Assembly (NCBI GenBank): GCA_037147375.1
Contig: JBAWVI010000056.1
Location: forward strand, 1-6,244
From: an archaeon
Lineage (GTDB): Archaea > Iainarchaeota > Iainarchaeia > Iainarchaeales > CSSED10-239
Reading direction: 5' to 3'
Length of the DNA: 6,244 nt
Position numbers and translations under genes: made by a program. The notes below the pieces were generated by a model, which did not search any database, was not told the DNA's origin, and worked only from the letters and a program-made list of their open reading frames with translations. Below, one piece after another: positions 1-6,244 of the stretch; the stretch's first letter is position 1; each line of letters opens with the position of its first letter.

Positions 1-53
1 TTGTATTTTGGAGATCCTTTTCCCCTTCTTTGTAATTTAAGTCTTCTTCCCAT
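1..53 (-). CDS. rpl2: 50S ribosomal protein uL2 (L2), first 17 codons only; the gene runs off the left edge
   Basis: The reverse complement of 1-53 reads ATG GGA AGA AGA CTT AAA TTA CAA AGA AGG GGA AAA GGA TCT CCA AAA TAC = MGRRLKLQRRGKGSPKY. This matches the conserved archaeal uL2 N-terminus (MGKR...Q.RG.G). It lies 17 nt downstream of the uL23 stop, as expected for the L3-L4-L23-L2 order. Confidence 0.75.
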   Translation of the reverse strand, partial: MGRRLKLQRRGKGSPKY

Positions 54-70
54 ATTATATCAACTTTAAT

Positions 71-391
71 TTATATGATACCAAGCTTGTTTGCAACATC
101 TTGTGCACTACTTGTTTTTGCAAGAGTAACAAATGCTTTCTTTCTATTCTTTGTGTCAAATAATAAATTTACTTTTGAAACCTTAACATTATACATTTTT
201 TCTGCTGCATCTTTTATTTGAGCTTTTGTTGCTTTCTTTGCAACAACGAATGTTAGGCGGTTTTCTCTTGTAATTAAATCAACTGCTTTTTCAGTAATGA
301 TTGGATACTCTATTATTTCATAATATTCTACCTTCTTAACTGGTTTTGCAGTTTTGAATTTTGCAGTTTTAATTTTTATGTTCTTTCCCAT
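71..391 (-). CDS. rpl23: 50S ribosomal protein uL23 (L23) with a Lys-rich N-terminal extension of about 20 aa
   Basis: 106-aa ORF. The core IIEYPIITEKAVDLITRENRLTFVVAKKATKAQIKDAAEKMYNVKVSKVNLL...KKAFVTLA...A.KLG is the classic archaeal uL23 signature. A GGTGA Shine-Dalgarno site lies 7 nt upstream of the ATG and overlaps the uL4 stop. The position between uL4 and uL2 fits. Confidence 0.93.
   Translation of the reverse strand: MGKNIKIKTAKFKTAKPVKKVEYYEIIEYPIITEKAVDLITRENRLTFVVAKKATKAQIKDAAEKMYNVKVSKVNLLFDTKNRKKAFVTLAKTSSAQDVANKLGII
344..370 (-). repeat. Perfect 12-nt direct repeat with 15-nt period inside the rpl23 5' extension
   Basis: Plus-strand ttttgcagtttt occurs at 344-355 and again at 359-370, separated by gaa. 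It encodes K-T-A-K-F / K-T-A-K-P. Confidence 0.9.
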
Positions 392-398
392 ATGGTTT

Positions 399-403
399 TC
401 ACC
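399..403 (-). promoter_or_regulatory. Shine-Dalgarno site (GGTGA) for rpl23, overlapping the TAG stop of rpl4
   Basis: The minus strand reads TAGGTGAAAACCATATG. GGTGA is complementary to the archaeal 16S 3' end, with a 7-nt spacer to the ATG at 391. Confidence 0.7.
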
Positions 404-1212
404 TAACTAAATCTCTCTTGAAGTTTCTTGATTGCATCTTCTGAGAAGATTGCAAGTCTTCCAGCGTGTGTTCCTGGTGCTAATTCCTTAACAGAAACAA
501 ACTTTGCATTAGTTACATCAACACCTTCAAGATTTGTAAATGCTTTATAGTTCTTAGAATCTCCAAGTATGAATAAGATACTCTTTCTTTTCTTGTATCT
601 TCTTCCTCTCATCTTTCCTTTACCAGCTCTCTCTGTTTTAGAGTCTTTTGCTTTTTCAATGTTTTCTGATAAGCCTATTTTTTCAAGGAATGAATAAACA
701 TCTTTTGTTTTTTCTAAGTTTTCTATGTTTTGTTCAATAATTATTGGTAATTTAATTCCTTCAGGAATCATACTTCCTCTTGTTATAACTAGTGCTGGAT
801 TAGCTGTTGCACCAATAGCTGAGAGAATAGCTTTTGTTCTTTCCTTAGAATTTATTTTCTTAATTAGTATTTTTGCAATCTTTGGTGGGTGTGCTGAAGG
901 ACCTCCTACAGCATGTGAAACACCAGCAACACGACCAGCCATTAAAACTCTTCTATTCTTAAGTCTTGGAAGTCTAGCATGTCCTGTGTTAATGCTTTTG
1001 TTCATTGGAGAACCATATTTTCTTGAACCATTATAATATGCTGTATTAAGTCTGTTTGAGTATGGAGAAACACCTTTTGGTTGGTAGTCTCTACTTTGAC
1101 TTGAAATTACAGCTTTCTTAATAAGGTCTGGTCTATAAGATTCTTCAAAGAAGCTTGGGATTTCAATTTCCTTTACAACTTTCCCTTCAAGATTATAAAC
1201 ATTTGTTTTCAT
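403..1212 (-). CDS. rpl4: 50S ribosomal protein uL4 (archaeal L4/L1e type)
   Basis: 269-aa ORF. Motifs EESYRPDLIKKAV, GGPSAHPPK, NSKERTKAILSAIGATANP, RAGKGKMRGRRYKKRKSIL and LAPGTHAGRLAIFSEDAIKKL are typical of archaeal uL4. The length is archaeal (about 250-270 aa), not bacterial (about 200 aa). AGGA lies 6 nt upstream of the ATG. Confidence 0.95.
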   Translation of the reverse strand: MKTNVYNLEGKVVKEIEIPSFFEESYRPDLIKKAVISSQSRDYQPKGVSPYSNRLNTAYYNGSRKYGSPMNKSINTGHARLPRLKNRRVLMAGRVAGVSHAVGGPSAHPPKIAKILIKKINSKERTKAILSAIGATANPALVITRGSMIPEGIKLPIIIEQNIENLEKTKDVYSFLEKIGLSENIEKAKDSKTERAGKGKMRGRRYKKRKSILFILGDSKNYKAFTNLEGVDVTNAKFVSVKELAPGTHAGRLAIFSEDAIKKLQERFS

Positions 1213-1218
1213 GTTAAT

Positions 1219-1222
1219 TCCT
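1219..1222 (-). promoter_or_regulatory. Weak Shine-Dalgarno site (AGGA) for rpl4
   Basis: The minus strand reads GTAGGAATTAACATG, within the 26-nt uL3-uL4 spacer. Confidence 0.5.
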
Positions 1223-1238
1223 ACTTATTAAATTTAAA

Positions 1239-2225
1239 TTATTTTGCGATGTAACTTACATCCACAACTTCTATCATTTTCCTTGTTGGTCTTATTGCGT
1301 TTCTTAAAGCCATTATTCTTTTAGCTGGGCCTGGAACAGTCCCTGCAATAAGCACATAATTGTTTTTTACAACACCATAATTTTCAAATCCACCTTTTCT
1401 ATTAACTTTGGTTGGATCTGTTTCTATAGAAATTAGTTTCTTATTGAATGTTGTTCTGTTATGGAATCCATGTTGACCAGCTCTTGCTACAGTAAACATT
1501 ACGGTTGCAGGATGCCATGGACCAATTGAACCAACATGTCTTTGGTGTTGTTGTGTTTTTGGTCTTTGTATTTTAATACCAAATCTTTTTACAGGTCCAG
1601 TATAACCGTGACCCTTTGTAACAGATTTAACATCTAGATAAGTATCTGGTTTTGTCATTTCACTAATTAATATTGATTTATTATATTTTTCTTTTAAATA
1701 GTTAATTTTTTCATCAAATGTTCCTGATAAAATAATTTCAAGAATTGCTGGCTTCTTTTGACCAGTTGTTGTGGATTTTAAATCAAGAGCGCATAATAGA
1801 ACTAAGTCATCTGCTTGAGATTTCTTTTTTAATAAGTCTTCAACAGGATTTGTTTTTTCTTTTGATTTATTACCTGTGATTCTCTTAGAAAGAAGATGAT
1901 CGCGAACTAAAAACTCGTAAACTGATTTTTTTCCAGAAATAGAAGAATTTTCTTTATATAATCTTGCTCCAACAACCTTGAGGCTCGGAGTTTCAATAAT
2001 AGAAACAGGGATTGCAACTTCTTGCCCATAGCTTGAGGAATTCTTATGTGCGTCCTTTGCTATGATGTGGGTCATTCCAACCTTCACTCCATAATAACAA
2101 AGAGGCTTACATTCCTTTTGAGCTGAGAAATCTCCAAAGGTATTAAACTTTGGGACAATATCCTTTGCTTTAACTCTTGGATAAAACGCCATTGAACCAT
2201 TTCTTGGTTTTGTTCCGCTTGCCAT
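1239..2225 (-). CDS. rpl3: 50S ribosomal protein uL3 (archaeal/eukaryotic type), first gene of the operon
   Basis: 328-aa ORF. The N-terminus ...KPRNGSMAFYPRVKAK, plus KGHGYTGPVKRFG, RHVGSIGPWHPATVM, GQHGFHNRT and GPAKRIMALR, match archaeal uL3. The length is archaeal (about 330 aa; bacterial is about 210 aa). It is followed by uL4, uL23 and uL2. Confidence 0.95.
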   Translation of the reverse strand: MASGTKPRNGSMAFYPRVKAKDIVPKFNTFGDFSAQKECKPLCYYGVKVGMTHIIAKDAHKNSSSYGQEVAIPVSIIETPSLKVVGARLYKENSSISGKKSVYEFLVRDHLLSKRITGNKSKEKTNPVEDLLKKKSQADDLVLLCALDLKSTTTGQKKPAILEIILSGTFDEKINYLKEKYNKSILISEMTKPDTYLDVKSVTKGHGYTGPVKRFGIKIQRPKTQQHQRHVGSIGPWHPATVMFTVARAGQHGFHNRTTFNKKLISIETDPTKVNRKGGFENYGVVKNNYVLIAGTVPGPAKRIMALRNAIRPTRKMIEVVDVSYIAK

Positions 2226-2347
2226 AAATTACACACTTTTTTATTTTTAATTTTTGGGACTAATAGCATACTTGCTGTAGGCCTCAAAAAACAATCCTAT
2301 TTTTGTTTTTAAAAAAACATATAACACAATTGCTTTGTATTTATATG

Positions 2348-2374
2348 TTAACCAATTTTTTATAAAATGGTTAA
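2348..2374. repeat. Imperfect inverted repeat, TTAACCA(A)TTTT - TTAT - AAAATGGTTAA
   Basis: Read directly: left arm 2348-2359, 4-nt loop 2360-2363, right arm 2364-2374. This gives 11 bp with one bulged A. It is nested inside an 8-bp inverted repeat, GCTTTGTA 2332-2339 / TACAAAGC 2401-2408. Confidence 0.6.
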
Positions 2375-2447
2375 TAATGTACTACTGTTAACATGCAGTG
2401 TACAAAGCTTAAATATTTTCAAATTATATAATAATTGTTAGGAAATA

Positions 2448-2458
2448 TTTATAAAGGG
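2448..2458 (-). promoter_or_regulatory. Candidate archaeal BRE/TATA element (minus strand AAACCCTTTATAAATA)
   Basis: TTTATAAA at 2448-2455 is preceded on the minus strand by CCC and an A-rich stretch. It sits just downstream of the oligo-T tracts that follow the large gene and 220-230 nt upstream of the rpl3 ATG. The 10-nt core CCTTTATAAA recurs upstream of the Gly/Tyr gene at 6095-6104. The core is palindromic, so orientation is not certain. Confidence 0.4.
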
Positions 2459-2486
2459 TTTGGTTTTTTTCTCATAATCTGGGAAG

Positions 2487-2538
2487 AAAAACGTACCAAA
2501 AATATGAATTAGATAAATCCAAGCTCCAATTATAAAAA
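2487..2538 (-). terminator. Cluster of three oligo-T (T5) tracts downstream of the large surface-protein gene
   Basis: Minus-strand T5 runs at 2534-2538, 2498-2502 and 2487-2491, all within about 75 nt of the TAA stop at 2560-2562. Archaeal RNA polymerase terminates at oligo-T tracts. Confidence 0.45.
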
Positions 2539-2559
2539 TAAGTTATCTGCTTCCTTATT

Positions 2560-5500
2560 TTATATATTTTGACGTGAATTGAGCCCAGCTCTTACTCCCT
2601 TTTCAAATTGTCTTCTTCTGTGTCTTCTTATATAATACCCAATTATTAATAAAACTATGATTATTAGAACAATTAAACCTACTGTTCCTGAAACTGTACT
2701 AAAGGTAAAAAATGCTGTTAATCCTTTCCTTTTATTGTCAGCTGCAAAGTAAGTTACAGAATCACTTTCAATTAATTTACCTGATTGCCTATCAATTACA
2801 TTAAAAGCAACTGAATCAGTGTCTTTTAGCTTAGTCTTTGTAACTATCCTATATTCAATTGTTTTATTGCTATCAGCATCTATTGTAAATAACTTTTCTC
2901 CATCAATCACTGTGTTTTCATCTACCTTGAATAAGATTTCAAGGTCCTTTGAAAAAGAACTATTGTTCTTTAATGTTATTTTTAGATTATATGCGTTCTC
3001 AAAATCATTTATAATAATTAAACTTTTACTTGTAACTTCTATATCTGAAAGAATAGGAGTTAAGTCAATTGTAACTTGAGTTTTTGAAACAAGTACATTT
3101 GATTCATATAATTCAAAATAAGCATTATACTTAGTTTTTATTTCGTTTTCTGGAATAACTATCCCAAAGTAAATAGTTTTTGTTTGATTGCTTCCAATAG
3201 TAAATCTATCTTTACTTCTAGTTTGAGAATCAACTAAGTCTATGTTCATTATGCTATCATTTTCATAGATCTTCCAAGTATCTGGAAGTCCAGCAAGCTT
3301 TAGAGTTACGTTCTTTTCTGTATTGTAGGTGTTAAGTATAGATACATTAGTTAAAGATCTGTTATTTATAGGTGTAATCACAGAAGGTGATGATGTAATC
3401 ATTATTTTCTTATCAGATGACGTAGATGAGGTTAATTTAGTAGTGTATATCTTCTCTTGGCATCCATTTAGTTTAATGTTATAAATCACGTATGTTGGAT
3501 TATTAAAATTACTTAAGGTTAAGGCTCTTGTAAAATCATCATATCCATCAAGATAGATTACTGATGGATCAACAACAGCACCATAAGCAGACATGCTTAT
3601 TGTTCCACCCTTTAGAGATTGGTTATTAAAAGTTAAATATAAGGATTCTCTTGCATTTGCTATGTTTTGAGTTGCTGGATAATCTATTTCAAAATCACAA
3701 GCTCCTGCTTGGAAATTAATATTATCTTTAGTTGTAATTGTTCCTAGTGTTGTTTTTGTATACTCACAAGTATCTCCATTTACAAACTTACCTTTAACTT
3801 GAAGATTTGCAGAACCATCTCCTGTTACTCCAACTCTTATATCTTTAATTGAATTTGGTTTAATTATTGTTGCTTTATCAATAACATTTACGTTAAGTCC
3901 ATTCTTGTTTAAAACAATTACATCATTCATTCCAAATTCTTTATTTGTATTGTTTTGGATTGTTATGCTGTTTTCTCCTTGAACTACTTTTTTATCTTGA
4001 ACTATGATGTTTGAACAAGTGTCTGTTGAATCAAGAACGTTTATTGTAAAATAAGATTTTATATCTGAATAAGTACAACTAATTCCATTATCAAATCTTC
4101 CAAGAACTGAAACACTACCTCTTGAAGAGGTTGTTGCGTTTATTAAGAATGTTTTAAGATTAAAATTTAGAGATGTTTGTGAATTAGCATTGATTGCATA
4201 ATTCATTGTGTTCTTTACAATATCTGCAAATTGAGAGTTATCAGAAATACTAACTTCATTAATATTGAATTTATTATTTGATTTGTTTGAGATATAAAAT
4301 CCATTTGCATTTGTGTAATCTTTACTTGTATTTTCTTTTTGAGAAATGTTTGAGGTGTATATTTTAATATTTGAACATTCGCTAGATGTGTTATTATTAG
4401 AATTATCATTTATTCTTACAGGGAGATTAACTGTTTTCTTACAGTGCTTATCTTCATGTCCTGATCTTTCCATATATCCATTAATTGTAAGAGCTACATC
4501 TTCAGTAAGATAATTATCAACTTCTTCGGTTTCTAGTCTTACTTTTATTTTACCTGTACTATCTCTATGAACTGATGAAGGTTCATATGTAACGTCTGCG
4601 CTTATGTGATCAGTATCTTTAATGCTTGTGCTTTCAATAACATAATCATAATCATTAGAATTGTTTTCGATTTCAATTTCTTTTGTTTGTGTATCATTTT
4701 CATTCATAGTTATACTTGTATTATTAAATGAAATATCAGAACAATCAGCATTACTTGTGTTATCTTGATCTTCTATATGATAATAAACTGTATATTGCTT
4801 TGTGCAAGTAAGAGTATCATATCTTGCAGCAACAGTTACATCAAATGAACCTGTAAAATCAGAATCAACAGTGCTTGCAGTCATGTCTATGTTTGCAGAT
4901 CTAGTTCCATAACTTCCTATTGTGTATGGATAATCAATATTATCTATATCTAAATTCTCTGGGTTTGTTGTAGTTACTGAAGTTACAGTTAATTCTTCAT
5001 TAACTGTATTAATCATATATAAATAATAATTAGTAGAATCATCTTCTTGTAAATAAATATCTCCTTGACCAGATAAATAGAAATCATCACAAGTTATAGT
5101 TGTTGGGTTTGTGTTTCCGTTTCCATTATTATTCCCGTTTCCTGGAGTTGTTCCTGAACTATAAACATATGCAACATCATTTGCAAGCGGATTACCAGAA
5201 AGGTCTACAACATTTAATTCTATCTTATATCCTAAATAATCTGCATCAAAATAAAATAAGTTATTATAAACATAGTTGTATGGGTTTGCAGAATAAAGAT
5301 ATACTGGGCTTGTTGGAACTGACATAACTTGAGTCATATAACCAGCTGGACTTATTCCATAGATTACTGGAGAAATATATACTTGTTGATTGCCAGAAAA
5401 ACCATATCCAGTTAATTGATAAGAAAAATCTACATTATCAAAATAGTTTGCATATTGTACATTTAAAAACGGAGTATATGAATCACTTCTTACATATGCA

Positions 5501-5592
5501 TAATCTACATCAACATAGTAAGCTTGTACACTCCCAATAATAAATATCATTGCTATAGCAATAAAACCAAATAGTATATTTTTCTTAATCAT
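2560..5592 (-). CDS. Large (1010 aa) secreted, C-terminally membrane-anchored multi-domain cell-surface protein; putative S-layer/adhesin-like glycoprotein of unassigned family
   Basis: Uninterrupted 3-kb ORF. It has a Sec-type signal peptide (MIKKNILFGFIAIAMIFIIGSVQA/YY) and an Asn/Ser/Thr-rich ectodomain with about 21 N-x-S/T sequons (hand count). It contains 10 Cys in five regularly spaced pairs. A hydrophobic C-terminal helix (VGLIVLIIIVLLIIGYYI) is followed by the tail RRHRRRQFEKG... A weak AGGA lies 7 nt upstream of the ATG. Confidence 0.88.
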   Translation of the reverse strand: MIKKNILFGFIAIAMIFIIGSVQAYYVDVDYAYVRSDSYTPFLNVQYANYFDNVDFSYQLTGYGFSGNQQVYISPVIYGISPAGYMTQVMSVPTSPVYLYSANPYNYVYNNLFYFDADYLGYKIELNVVDLSGNPLANDVAYVYSSGTTPGNGNNNGNGNTNPTTITCDDFYLSGQGDIYLQEDDSTNYYLYMINTVNEELTVTSVTTTNPENLDIDNIDYPYTIGSYGTRSANIDMTASTVDSDFTGSFDVTVAARYDTLTCTKQYTVYYHIEDQDNTSNADCSDISFNNTSITMNENDTQTKEIEIENNSNDYDYVIESTSIKDTDHISADVTYEPSSVHRDSTGKIKVRLETEEVDNYLTEDVALTINGYMERSGHEDKHCKKTVNLPVRINDNSNNNTSSECSNIKIYTSNISQKENTSKDYTNANGFYISNKSNNKFNINEVSISDNSQFADIVKNTMNYAINANSQTSLNFNLKTFLINATTSSRGSVSVLGRFDNGISCTYSDIKSYFTINVLDSTDTCSNIIVQDKKVVQGENSITIQNNTNKEFGMNDVIVLNKNGLNVNVIDKATIIKPNSIKDIRVGVTGDGSANLQVKGKFVNGDTCEYTKTTLGTITTKDNINFQAGACDFEIDYPATQNIANARESLYLTFNNQSLKGGTISMSAYGAVVDPSVIYLDGYDDFTRALTLSNFNNPTYVIYNIKLNGCQEKIYTTKLTSSTSSDKKIMITSSPSVITPINNRSLTNVSILNTYNTEKNVTLKLAGLPDTWKIYENDSIMNIDLVDSQTRSKDRFTIGSNQTKTIYFGIVIPENEIKTKYNAYFELYESNVLVSKTQVTIDLTPILSDIEVTSKSLIIINDFENAYNLKITLKNNSSFSKDLEILFKVDENTVIDGEKLFTIDADSNKTIEYRIVTKTKLKDTDSVAFNVIDRQSGKLIESDSVTYFAADNKRKGLTAFFTFSTVSGTVGLIVLIIIVLLIIGYYIRRHRRRQFEKGVRAGLNSRQNI
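2629..2697 (-). other. C-terminal transmembrane anchor (residues about 966-988), followed by a 22-aa polybasic cytoplasmic tail (2563-2628)
   Basis: TVSGTVGLIVLIIIVLLIIGYYI is followed by RRHRRRQFEKGVRAGLNSRQNI. The positive-inside rule places the tail in the cytoplasm and the rest of the protein outside. Confidence 0.8.
2743..3420 (-). other. Two Cys-free membrane-proximal beta-rich domains (residues about 725-845 and 846-950), CARDB/NEW3-like
   Basis: The pattern NVSILNTYNTEKNVTLKLAGLPDTWKI ... FTIGSNQTKTIYFGIVIP resembles the n.G...v.l...lP.gW... signature of CARDB/NEW3-type archaeal surface domains. The second unit (YNLKITLKNNSSFSKDLEILFKV...FTIDADSNKTIEYRIV) has the same alternating-strand layout. 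This rests on pattern memory, not a search. Confidence 0.45.
3460..5091 (-). repeat. Five tandem, divergent protein modules, each bracketed by one Cys pair
   Basis: The only Cys residues are at 168/263, 284/384, 406/506, 526/609 and 632/711. Intra-pair spacings are 95, 100, 100, 83 and 79 residues, and inter-pair linkers are 20-23 residues. DNA spans are 4804-5091, 4441-4743, 4075-4377, 3766-4017 and 3460-3699. I checked the Cys168 codon: aca at 5089-5091 is TGT on the minus strand. Confidence 0.8.
5098..5148 (-). repeat. Gly/Asn low-complexity hinge (TPGNGNNNGNGNTNPTT) encoded by reiterated GGAAAC units
   Basis: The minus strand reads CCA GGA AAC GGG AAT AAT AAT GGA AAC GGA AAC ACA AAC CCA ACA. 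It separates the Tyr-rich head from the first Cys-bracketed module. Confidence 0.7.
5149..5520 (-). other. Tyr-rich N-terminal (membrane-distal) head domain, residues 25-148
   Basis: Hand count gives 22 Tyr in 124 residues. Example segments are YYVDVDYAYV, NPYNYVYNNLFYFDADYLGY and VAYVYSS. There is no Cys. Confidence 0.6.
5521..5592 (-). other. Signal peptide of the large surface protein (residues 1-24)
   Basis: KK n-region, hydrophobic core FGFIAIAMIFII, and a small-x-small motif (V-Q-A) before YY. Confidence 0.75.
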
Positions 5593-5616
5593 ATTAAATT
5601 CCTTTTTTTAAAATAT

Positions 5617-5647
5617 AAAAAATTAGATAAGATAAATTTATCTTATC
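5617..5647 (-). terminator. Perfect 22-bp palindrome (GATAAGATAAATTTATCTTATC, 5626-5647) followed on the minus strand by TAA and a T6 tract (5617-5622); terminator/attenuator-like or an operator
   Basis: Read directly; the reverse complement is identical. It straddles the TAA stop (5638-5640) of the Gly/Tyr gene. The T6 tract overlaps a TATA-like TTTTATAT (5613-5620) centred about 25 nt upstream of the large-gene ATG, so its role is ambiguous. Confidence 0.4.
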
Positions 5648-6042
5648 CAACTAAAAGATAAATTTGTTGTTGCATCTGAATAACTTACTGAATTGTATCC
5701 GTAACCATATCCTGAACCGTAATATCCAGTCCCATAATATCCTGTTCCGTAGTAGTTATCATATCCTGAATAATAGTTATTGTATCCATTGTAATAAGTT
5801 GGATAAACTGTTGCATAAGTTGGAACATAATTGTATGTTGTGTATGTTGGATAACCATAACCAATCATTCCTGTGTAAGGGTTAATGTACCCACCGTATG
5901 CATAACCACCATATGCTGGATAACCATATCCAACGTATGAATAGGAGATATCTGTTACATCAAAATCCTCTGCACTAACACCTATACCTAAAAATAAAAG
6001 TGATGCAAGGACTACAGAAATTAAAATTATTTTAGAGTTCAT
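5638..6042 (-). CDS. Small (134 aa) secreted Gly/Tyr-rich low-complexity protein, unassigned family
   Basis: It has a Sec-type signal peptide (MNSKIILISVVLASLLFLGIGVSA/ED). The mature 110 aa contain 32 Tyr and about 19 Gly (hand count) in G-Y-G, Y-P-T-Y and G-T-G-Y-Y motifs. It has the strongest ribosome-binding site in the window (GGAGG, 9-nt spacer) and a BRE/TATA-like element about 55 nt upstream. It is co-oriented with the large surface-protein gene, 45 nt upstream of it. Confidence 0.8.
   Translation of the reverse strand: MNSKIILISVVLASLLFLGIGVSAEDFDVTDISYSYVGYGYPAYGGYAYGGYINPYTGMIGYGYPTYTTYNYVPTYATVYPTYYNGYNNYYSGYDNYYGTGYYGTGYYGSGYGYGYNSVSYSDATTNLSFSWIR
5695..5754 (-). repeat. Degenerate tandem 15-nt (5-codon) repeats encoding YYGTG-YYGTG-YYGSG-YGYGY
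   Basis: Residues 97-116. Codons were checked by hand, for example GGA ACA GGA TAT TAT / GGG ACT GGA TAT TAC. The repeats are imperfect at the DNA level. Confidence 0.75.
5971..6042 (-). other. Signal peptide of the Gly/Tyr-rich protein (residues 1-24)
   Basis: Lys at position 4, hydrophobic core IILISVVLASLLFLGIG, and V-S-A before the acidic EDFD. Confidence 0.75.
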
Positions 6043-6051
6043 AAATCATTT

Positions 6052-6056
6052 CCTCC
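6052..6056 (-). promoter_or_regulatory. Strong Shine-Dalgarno site (GGAGG) for the Gly/Tyr-rich gene
   Basis: The minus strand reads AAAGGAGGAAATGATTTATG, with a 9-nt spacer to the ATG at 6042. Confidence 0.75.
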
Positions 6057-6094
6057 TTTAAGCTTGTTTAATATATATTTAATTAAACAAATAG

Positions 6095-6104
6095 TTTATA
6101 AAGG
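6095..6104 (-). promoter_or_regulatory. Candidate archaeal BRE/TATA element (minus strand AAAAACCTTTATAAAC) for the Gly/Tyr gene
   Basis: The TTTATAAA core lies 53-60 nt upstream of the ATG. That predicts a transcription start near 6072 and a leader of about 30 nt containing the SD. The same 10-nt core occurs at 2448-2457. Confidence 0.5.
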
Positions 6105-6212
6105 TTTTTAATTCCTTAAAGTTACATAATTAAGCTAATATATAATATAGAGAGATAAACTTTAAAACTAAACTGATTACATATATTATAACTATTTAAA
6201 GGAAAAATAAAT

Positions 6213-6244
6213 ATGGTTGAAGAACAAACTGGATCTATTCAAGA
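6213..6244 (+). CDS. Start of an unidentified plus-strand ORF (MVEEQTGSIQ...), running off the right edge
   Basis: This is the first ATG after an in-frame TAA at 6189-6191. GGA lies 9 nt upstream, and TATATTATA (6182-6190) is centred about 27 nt upstream, so the mRNA could be leaderless. It is divergent from the Gly/Tyr gene. Only 10 codons are visible, so no product can be assigned. Confidence 0.3.
   Translation, partial: MVEEQTGSIQ

Follow-up and report, generated by a model that had tools for sequence, protein, structure and literature searches.

A narrowly distributed family of tyrosine-rich secreted proteins in Iainarchaeota, encoded beside a large surface protein: a possible envelope subunit

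We analyzed a stretch of 6,244 nucleotides from an archaeon of the phylum Iainarchaeota (assembly GCA_037147375.1, contig JBAWVI010000056.1, positions 1 to 6,244; hereafter, the window). On its minus strand, an open reading frame (ORF) at 5638-6042, listed with an ATG start and 134 amino acids plus stop, is a genuine gene under strong purifying selection. It encodes a small tyrosine-rich secreted protein whose family is undescribed and very narrow in distribution. It is the Tyr content and two end modules that this family conserves, not a Gly or [G/S]Y[G/S] pattern. The gene is followed, in every lineage examined, by that of a big S-layer-type protein, and we infer, tentatively, that the Tyr-rich protein is a small secreted structural accessory or "cement" subunit of the envelope that works with this big surface protein. 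The original prediction, made from the window alone, had placed a low-complexity protein at 5680-5943, which is the core of the longer ORF; the context that it overlooked, and that we consider decisive, is the pairing with the large surface-protein gene.

Results

The tyrosine-rich ORF is a genuine gene

The ORF translates as MNSKIILISVVLASLLFLGIGVSA followed, after the predicted cleavage site, by EDFDVTDISYSYVGYGYPAYGGYAYGGYINPYTGMIGYGYPTYTTYNYVPTYATVYPTYYNGYNNYYSGYDNYYGTGYYGTGYYGSGYGYGYNSVSYSDATTNLSFSWIR, with the mature protein starting at EDFDV. The 110 mature residues comprise 32 Tyr, 19 Gly, 12 Thr, 9 Ser, 8 Asn, 5 Asp, 1 Glu, 1 Arg and no Lys or Cys. This count confirms the composition first reported (32 Tyr and about 19 Gly in 110 residues, few Asp/Glu, a terminal Arg, no Lys or Cys), and the motifs quoted with it are all present in the translation. 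The mature window copy also lacks Gln and has a mass of 12.5 kDa, a pI of 4.05 and an aromaticity of 0.32. Among ORFs of at least 60 amino acids in loci L001-L026, the only ones to reach 14% Tyr were the Tyr-rich ORF with its orthologues and fragments from the N-terminus of the big protein; the window is AT-rich (GC 23-37%). By eye, the signal peptide shows Lys in the n-region, a hydrophobic core and small residues at -3/-1, an architecture present in every family member. Because it has no Cys the protein is not a lipoprotein, and it has no transmembrane (TM) segment or membrane anchor. The features of the gene and its upstream region are as follows.

6094-6109, minus strand: putative archaeal promoter with a transcription factor B recognition element (BRE) and TATA box, AAAAACCTTTATAAAC, about 56 nt before the ATG (upstream alignment, archaeal consensus)
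6052-6058, minus strand: Shine-Dalgarno sequence AAGGAGG, 9 nt before the ATG (sequence)
5971-6042, minus strand: Sec-type (class I) signal peptide, residues 1-24, with predicted cleavage between VSA and ED (sequence, AlphaFold2 (AF2), family)
5863-5970, minus strand: conserved N-terminal module, residues 25-60, EDFDVTDISYSYVGYGYPAYG..GGYINPYTGMI (alignment, ratio of non-synonymous to synonymous substitution rates (dN/dS))
5695-5862, minus strand: Tyr-rich middle with repeat turnover, residues 61-116 (lineage comparison)
5704-5748, minus strand: three 15-nt units encoding GTGYY-GTGYY-GSGYG, residues 99-113 (Tandem Repeats Finder (TRF), unit listing)
5641-5694, minus strand: conserved C-terminal module, residues 117-134, NSVSYSDATTNLSFSWIR, a predicted amphipathic beta-hairpin at the C-terminus (alignment, AF2)

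Proteins identical to the window's are found on 8 public contigs. Relatives were sought by a word-indexed search among 5.8 billion proteins, by an exhaustive HMMER run over 1.84 billion representatives and by a metagenome scan, and synteny-guided retrieval added further members. The outcome was 19 distinct orthologues of 112-145 amino acids, all intact and all with a Sec-type signal peptide. Loss of the ORF, its signal peptide or its frame in relatives had been named at the outset as grounds for abandoning the gene; we looked for such losses and found all three features conserved. In a codon-level comparison, the length differences are all multiples of 3. Against the three closest relatives, dN/dS was 0.06-0.13 for the whole gene, 0.02-0.06 for the N-terminal module and 0.06-0.12 for the repeat region, so that even the middle is still under purifying selection, and synonymous and non-synonymous changes in this frame stood at 32.5:18.5, 39:13 and 52:38. 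The low dN/dS and the restriction to in-frame indels exclude a chance ORF or an antisense gene, the latter having been put forward as a possible real gene; substitutions are mostly synonymous in the Tyr-rich frame.

The BRE/TATA element, which by archaeal consensus is probably the promoter of the Tyr-rich gene, aligned in 11/11 upstream regions some 50-60 nt before the ATG and is retained even where the Tyr-rich proteins are only 32-42% identical (BLASTP). An A-rich BRE precedes the TATA box, the element reading TTTATAAAC in most lineages and TTTAAAAAC in L007, L010 and L027. Of these 11 upstream regions, all but that of L028 have GGAGG or GGGGG at the Shine-Dalgarno position. One copy of the gene was found in a 977-kb contig. 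TAC accounts for 41% of its Tyr codons versus 21-25% in neighboring genes, an excess that is significant against non-ribosomal genes (p=0.035) and not against ribosomal ones, and is weak evidence for codon optimization. With no Lys and a single, C-terminal Arg in the mature protein, trypsin-based metaproteomics cannot detect it, so that nothing can be concluded from a lack of peptides.

The family is undescribed and confined to one subclade

The protein had been proposed to be a secreted, nearly charge-free archaeal protein of no described class, and this was borne out: its hosts are archaea of the phylum Iainarchaeota, within DPANN, a Sec-type signal is present in all members, and no curated family, solved structure or paper was found. 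In particular, the Tyr-rich protein and seven family members gave no match in Pfam, NCBIfam or PHROGs, Rfam had none in the window, and literature searches returned nothing describing Tyr-rich secreted proteins in archaea. A PDB sequence search with the family profile returned only Tyr-rich antibody heavy-chain variable (VH) domains below threshold (E 0.016 or worse), which we took as compositional noise, and a profile-search match of 854 amino acids, P0007, was discarded as a repetitive, unrelated protein.

The family amounts to about 14 clusters among the 5.8 billion proteins and is limited to one Iainarchaeota subclade. The family alignment matched nothing in GTDB genome contigs; the relatives of ribosomal protein L3 in a second GTDB scan belonged to metagenome-assembled genomes named Candidatus Iainarchaeum, Forterrea or Diapherotrites, and one family member is annotated "Candidatus ainarchaeum sp."

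Conserved ends flank a variable middle

Tyr makes up 24-32% of the mature part in every family member. Gly ranges from 2 to 17%, with the window copy at the Gly-rich extreme, and [GST]Y[GST] motifs number 0-7 per member, with 7 in the window copy (17% Gly). Thus the Gly-richness, the [G/S/T]Y[G/S/T] motifs and the GTGYY repeats that the original prediction put foremost hold in the window's lineage but not family-wide. Mature proteins of the family have 87-120 residues with 5-11% Pro, no more than 4 basic residues (Lys 0-2 per protein), 2-10 YxY motifs and no Cys save one in the extension of P0012.

The N-terminal module starts 1-3 residues past the cleavage site and follows the pattern [FL][DE][VI]T[DES].SYSY, then GY[VI]xPYTG; the strand motif in the window is FDVTDISYSY. 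In seven diverse members the invariant columns are F27, T30, D31, S33, Y34, S35, Y36, P42, Y44, P55, Y56 and G58. At the other end, Y121 and W132 are invariant, and 17/19 orthologues terminate in [IV]SY..x5..[VI][ST]F[ST]W with 0-1 residue before the stop, the exceptions being P0006 (NVNWP) and P0012, which has a 24-residue C-terminal extension. By eye, the S-Y-S-Y-V and L-S-F-S-W alternation in the two modules is amphipathic and strand-like, and AF2 placed strands at 116-122 and 127-133 with low confidence. The C-terminus had been described as a short, strand-like end; it is strand-like, but no mere tail, being a highly conserved module like the one at the N-terminus. The AF2 model, built on a shallow alignment of only 7 sequences, showed no stable fold (mean predicted local distance difference test (pLDDT) 44; below 50 for residues 26-122); its sole confident part is the signal-peptide helix at 3-25.

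The middle carries YYG[TS]G repeats in the window's group, and YYPxT with GYNY in L007, L010, L044 and L045, in differing copy numbers. A Tyr-Tyr spacing of 5 is strongly over-represented in the latter group (z=4.3-4.7). The window has three YYG[TS]G units, GGAACAGGATATTAT, GGGACTGGATATTAC and GGTTCAGGATATGGT, which span 5704-5748; L032 and L033 have two, an in-frame 15-nt difference. TRF reported the repeat at 5707-5744 with period 15, 2.5 copies and 78% matches, and the longest exact DNA repeat inside the ORF is 12 nt. The suggestion that the repeat block could vary in length therefore holds in that copy number differs between related lineages, but with only 78% matching the DNA is too degenerate to be a present-day slippage hot spot. 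In a cluster look-up for strain-level length variants, P0001, P0002, P0003 and P0006 were all singleton clusters, the window sequence lying outside that table.

The gene is paired with that of a large surface protein

The partner gene and the spacer that separates it from the Tyr-rich gene have these features.

5593-5637, minus strand: 45-nt spacer from the Tyr-rich gene to the big gene, with a weak Shine-Dalgarno sequence AAAGGAA (sequence)
2560-5592, minus strand: 1010-residue S-layer-type protein with a signal peptide, about 8 predicted beta-sandwich domains and a C-terminal TM anchor (AF2, Foldseek)
5155-5520, minus strand: membrane-distal domain at the N-terminus of the big protein (residues 25-146), with 18% Tyr and 23% aromatic residues (per-domain composition)
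2563-2721, minus strand: C-terminal [LI]TAF motif, TM helix and Arg/Lys cluster of the big protein (alignment of 10 homologues)

From 10 sequences, AF2 modeled the big protein with a mean pLDDT of 73, as a signal peptide, about 8 all-beta domains and a TM helix at 969-1001, with a disordered Gly/Asn linker at 147-164 and a second disordered linker. Foldseek comparison of the model with the PDB returned generic immunoglobulin (Ig)-like arrays (hydin-type ciliary proteins and alpha-2-macroglobulins; TM-scores no higher than 0.15) and no specific S-layer match. The big protein has 10 invariant Cys and 21 N-x-S/T sequons, as would suit an extracellular glycoprotein. The N-terminal domain is highly conserved, and the remaining domains have 1-10% Tyr. 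At the C-terminus, the Arg/Lys cluster is followed by a variable tail; by its sequence, this end looks like a candidate for an undescribed archaeosortase sorting signal ("TAF-CTERM").

In all lineages examined, the big protein follows the Tyr-rich gene. Across 11 lineages the spacer measures 24-62 nt; the 24-25 nt of L028 and L038 leave no room for a promoter of the big gene's own, which favors co-transcription, and the simplest reading of this spacing is that the two genes form a bicistronic unit. We rejected the idea that the small ORF was split off from the 5' end of the big gene, because each gene has its own signal peptide and the spacers are not multiples of three across lineages.

More distant Iainarchaeota (L015-L026) have a secreted, C-terminally anchored protein of 313-646 amino acids just upstream of L3. 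Comparison with the profile of the big protein (E 1e-13 to 8e-25) shows these to be its homologues. They lack the Tyr-rich N-terminal domain, since they match only from profile position ~229 onward; no Tyr-rich ORF was seen in their loci. The co-occurrence of the Tyr-rich gene and the Tyr-rich distal domain in one subclade is suggestive. As a side observation, the arrangement of a surface protein next to the ribosomal operon seems to be phylum-wide in Iainarchaeota. When the full alignments of the small protein and the big-protein N-terminus were compared with hhalign, only the signal peptides aligned.

The locus is conserved and includes an archaeosortase-family gene

On the minus strand of the window the order is the Tyr-rich ORF (6042-5638), the 1010-residue ORF (5592-2560) and the ribosomal proteins L3 (2225-1239), L4 (1212-403) and L23 (391-71). 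Every lineage examined shares the wider order, that is, Cgi121 (opposite strand), S8e, an archaeosortase-family gene, sometimes 1-3 inserted genes, a coiled-coil gene (opposite strand), the Tyr-rich gene, a protein of 994-1075 amino acids, and L3, L4, L23 onward. L031, L038 and the short contig L027 end in or just past the big gene, and the L3 order was seen where the contig extends. The order is kept even in lineages whose Tyr-rich protein is only 32-42% identical (BLASTP).

6214-6244, plus strand: start of the divergent coiled-coil protein, cut by the window end (MVEEQTGSIQD, matching a 132-residue ORF in L002)
L002 8720-9274, L007 7248-7781, L010 1760-2284 and L028 3580-4140: archaeosortase-family gene

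The archaeosortase-family protein, of 174-192 residues, is encoded beyond the window; nearly all related lineages have its gene some 0.7-2.2 kb upstream of the Tyr-rich one. The protein matched TIGR04178 at 49 bits (cut-off 23) and no named subtype, and in 7/7 aligned lineages the Cys (CTG.LE), Arg (N..RI) and His (F.H.FLFR) are retained; the call at this position in L031 is only 108 amino acids. Lacking a TM segment and a basic tail, the Tyr-rich protein is itself not a canonical archaeosortase substrate.

Several observations concern the neighborhood rather than the Tyr-rich gene. The coiled-coil protein (127-132 residues; L002 9277-9675, minus strand) is cytoplasmic, occurs in every related locus and has no signal peptide or family match; a second conserved element in the shared intergenic region, TTTTAAAG[CT]TTATC, is probably its promoter. 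In three distant relatives, a diversity-generating retroelement (bAvd plus a reverse transcriptase of ~350 residues) adjoins Cgi121/S8e, 2-4 kb upstream of the Tyr-rich gene (L028 446-2600, L029 215-2369, L031 321-2472); it is absent from the window's lineage. DUF5680 and an ERCC4/Hef-type nuclease form a fused gene of 401 residues on some contigs of the window's lineage (L001 2455-3660) and are separate (160 and 238 residues) in L002 6471-7676; the lineage may be truly polymorphic here, or the assemblies or gene calls may differ. The N run at L002 9699-9798, between copies of a duplicated ~45-nt segment, is a scaffolding artefact and not biology. One related lineage only has a toxin-antitoxin pair (ribbon-helix-helix / ParE-YafQ; L007 2073-2668), between the P1 stalk and DEAD helicase genes, and at L033 7338-8474 L2 and S19 are called as one gene of 378 residues, which may be read-through or an assembly error.

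Discussion

How might a small, tyrosine-dense protein act with a large anchored one? After export and signal-peptide cleavage, an acidic mature protein of ~12 kDa, with hardly any basic residues and ~30% Tyr, would expose amphipathic strand modules exactly at both free ends (FDVTDISYSY and a hairpin ending FSW). These modules would dock by beta-strand addition, either to the Tyr-rich distal domain of the big protein or, in a head-to-tail manner, to further copies of the small protein. The Tyr-dense middle would supply many weak aromatic and hydrogen-bond contacts, and possibly also covalent Tyr cross-links or Tyr-linked glycans, so making the protein a cohesive accessory or cement subunit on the outer face of the envelope. 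Because only the composition and the two ends are constrained, the middle would be free to evolve by repeat gain and loss. As expected of an accessory subunit, the protein is secreted, and its gene and that of the major surface protein form a conserved unit.

Several points weigh against this proposal. Adjacency to a surface-protein gene does not prove physical partnership, and co-transcription is deduced from spacing alone; T-runs past the stop codon could terminate some transcripts. AF2 gave the Tyr-rich protein no confident fold (mean pLDDT 44). The coupling of gene and distal domain may stem from a single evolutionary event. The resemblance of the N-terminal module to big-protein residues 50-64, FDVTDISYSYVGYGY versus FDNVDFSYQLTGYGF, covers 15 residues and is weak and not significant; with signal peptides removed, hhalign gave E=0.024 and a probability of 2%, and shuffling gave p=0.008, so that we treat it as a lead and not a finding. 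A bolder form of the proposal, which we regard as possible but doubtful, is that the small protein and the lineage-added Tyr-rich distal domain make up an undescribed archaeal envelope material, an aromatic glue outside the DPANN cell. Such a glue could be non-covalent, cross-linked or Tyr-glycosylated, and the gene and the domain would have arisen together, possibly by partial duplication of the 5' end of the big gene.

We also considered other roles for the protein. It could be a self-assembling extracellular fibre or matrix subunit, independent of the big protein, that donates its N-terminal strand to the C-terminal hairpin of the next subunit or stacks its Tyr-rich strands in amyloid fashion. 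The conserved strand that starts 1-3 residues past the signal peptidase I (SPI) site, the conserved hairpin at the extreme C-terminus and an alternation (S-Y-S-Y-V, L-S-F-S-W) that suits beta-strands all speak for this, and archaeal thread subunits (Saci_0406) are likewise Sec/SPI-processed, with a donor strand in their conserved first 7 mature residues (Asp plus YYY) (PMC9715654). We nevertheless judge it unlikely, as no globular acceptor domain is predicted (pLDDT <50 for residues 26-122), 5-11% Pro disfavors long cross-beta stretches, no sequence or profile match to solved filament subunits was found, and this reading does not account for why the gene is invariably paired with that of the big protein. 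Thread/TasA-type subunits are, moreover, about twice the size of the mature protein of 87-120 residues. An adhesin or ligand-binding coat (for host cells, polysaccharides or minerals) of a DPANN episymbiont, or a scaffold for Tyr-linked glycans, seems quite unlikely. Many DPANN archaea live attached to a host, surfaces rich in Tyr generally make good binders (the sub-threshold antibody VH matches are an analogy only), and tyrosine O-glycosylation occurs in bacterial S-layer glycoproteins (PMC2943079). Here, however, binding ends, which usually diversify, would be the most conserved parts, and no glycosyltransferase was seen in the neighborhoods of the gene. Iainarchaeota are not known to be episymbionts. 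Furthermore, having no anchor of its own, an adhesin would need a partner to stay on the cell, which leads back to the proposal of a subunit working with the big protein.

A FUS-like protein that forms condensates through [G/S]Y[G/S] stickers would agree with the window copy, with its 7 [GST]Y[GST] motifs, 17% Gly and no stable AF2 fold; it is improbable, since the motif (0-7) and Gly (2-17%) are not conserved, Gln is absent from the window's mature protein, the signal peptide points to an extracellular protein, and the strongest constraint falls on two ordered-looking end modules. That the ORF is non-functional (a chance ORF in AT-rich DNA, an antisense shadow or a small modified-peptide precursor) could be argued from its shortness, its biased composition, the absence of a family match and the overlapping ORFs of 59 and 73 amino acids in other frames. 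This view is largely refuted, and we give it almost no credence: synonymous changes exceed non-synonymous ones in this frame, all indels are multiples of 3, the promoter and Shine-Dalgarno sequence are conserved and Rfam has no match, while for a modified-peptide precursor a Sec signal peptide would be atypical and no peptide-maturation enzyme lies in any neighborhood of the gene.

Almost nothing is known of DPANN envelopes, since these archaea have not been cultured, and the usual picture of an archaeal S-layer is of one or two folded proteins. If the proposed cement role is true, a constrained low-complexity protein with 30% Tyr, paired with the main surface protein, would be a new type of component, and Tyr-based cohesion, as in plant walls, mussel glue and insect resilin, would operate in archaea too. 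In addition, the family offers a compact natural model (~90-120 residues) in which composition-conserved repeats and short docking modules act together.

Comparison with known systems

The original prediction likened the protein to FUS-type low-complexity domains, high-Gly/Tyr keratin-associated proteins and Tyr-rich Bacillus spore-coat proteins (CotC/CotU/CotG). The likeness in composition stands for the window copy (high Tyr, low complexity, few charges), but it is an analogy only, because the Gly, Gln, Cys or Lys content that defines those proteins is absent or not conserved here. Moreover, they are produced, and do their work, within a cell compartment and have no Sec signal. The family has no conserved regular [G/S]Y[G/S] in Ser/Tyr/Gly/Gln-rich sequence as in FUS; it is archaeal, has a signal peptide, does not conserve Gly and gives no profile match to keratin-associated proteins; and with Lys at 0-2, a signal peptide in all members and no Pfam or NCBIfam match it does not resemble CotC, CotU or CotG. 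Functional amyloids (curli CsgA, methanogen sheath proteins) are likewise a poor fit: Pfam and the PDB gave no match, and the repeats of the family are 5-residue YYxxx units with Pro or Gly.

With archaeosortase-substrate (PGF-CTERM and related) systems the locus shares an archaeosortase-family gene, and the big protein has the motif, TM helix and basic C-terminus; unlike PGF-CTERM, [LI]TAF is not a described class and remains a putative signal, and the Tyr-rich protein ends in ...LSFSWIR with no hydrophobic segment. As in donor-strand filaments (the thread Saci_0406, cannulae and bundling pili), there is a Sec/SPI signal peptide with an SPI site 1-3 residues before the conserved strand motif in all members, an Asp/Tyr strand conserved at the mature N-terminus, and a neighboring gene that is co-expressed, here as judged from spacing. 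It differs from them in lacking homology (PDB and profile searches) and a predicted acceptor domain (AF2 of 7 sequences, a weak test), in being about half their size and in its extreme composition.

The organization can also be set beside two-gene archaeal S-layer units such as the Sulfolobales SlaA/SlaB pair (see PMC10903991). In both, small and large secreted envelope proteins are encoded side by side and presumably made together, and the large one is built of Ig-like/beta-sandwich domains. SlaA/SlaB carries its membrane anchor on the small protein. Here, by contrast, it is the large protein that holds the anchor; its small partner has none and is a low-complexity protein with 30% Tyr. The two systems are unrelated in sequence.

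Among eukaryotes, Tyr-rich proteins include plant extensins with YxY cross-link motifs, mussel foot proteins, resilin and wheat high-molecular-weight glutenin with its GYYPTSPQQ repeat. Like these, the family is secreted, repetitive and Tyr-dense with Pro, Thr, Ser and Gly, and sister lineages carry YYPxT or YYPTS pentads. Unlike them, it belongs to another domain of life, has no homology to them, is much smaller and has conserved, putative docking ends without a counterpart there; hydroxyproline, 3,4-dihydroxyphenylalanine and dityrosine chemistry may also be unavailable to hosts believed to live in oxygen-poor water. Taken together, Tyr-rich low-complexity structural proteins outside the cell are already known, and what is new here is the archaeal host and the tie to an S-layer-type protein.

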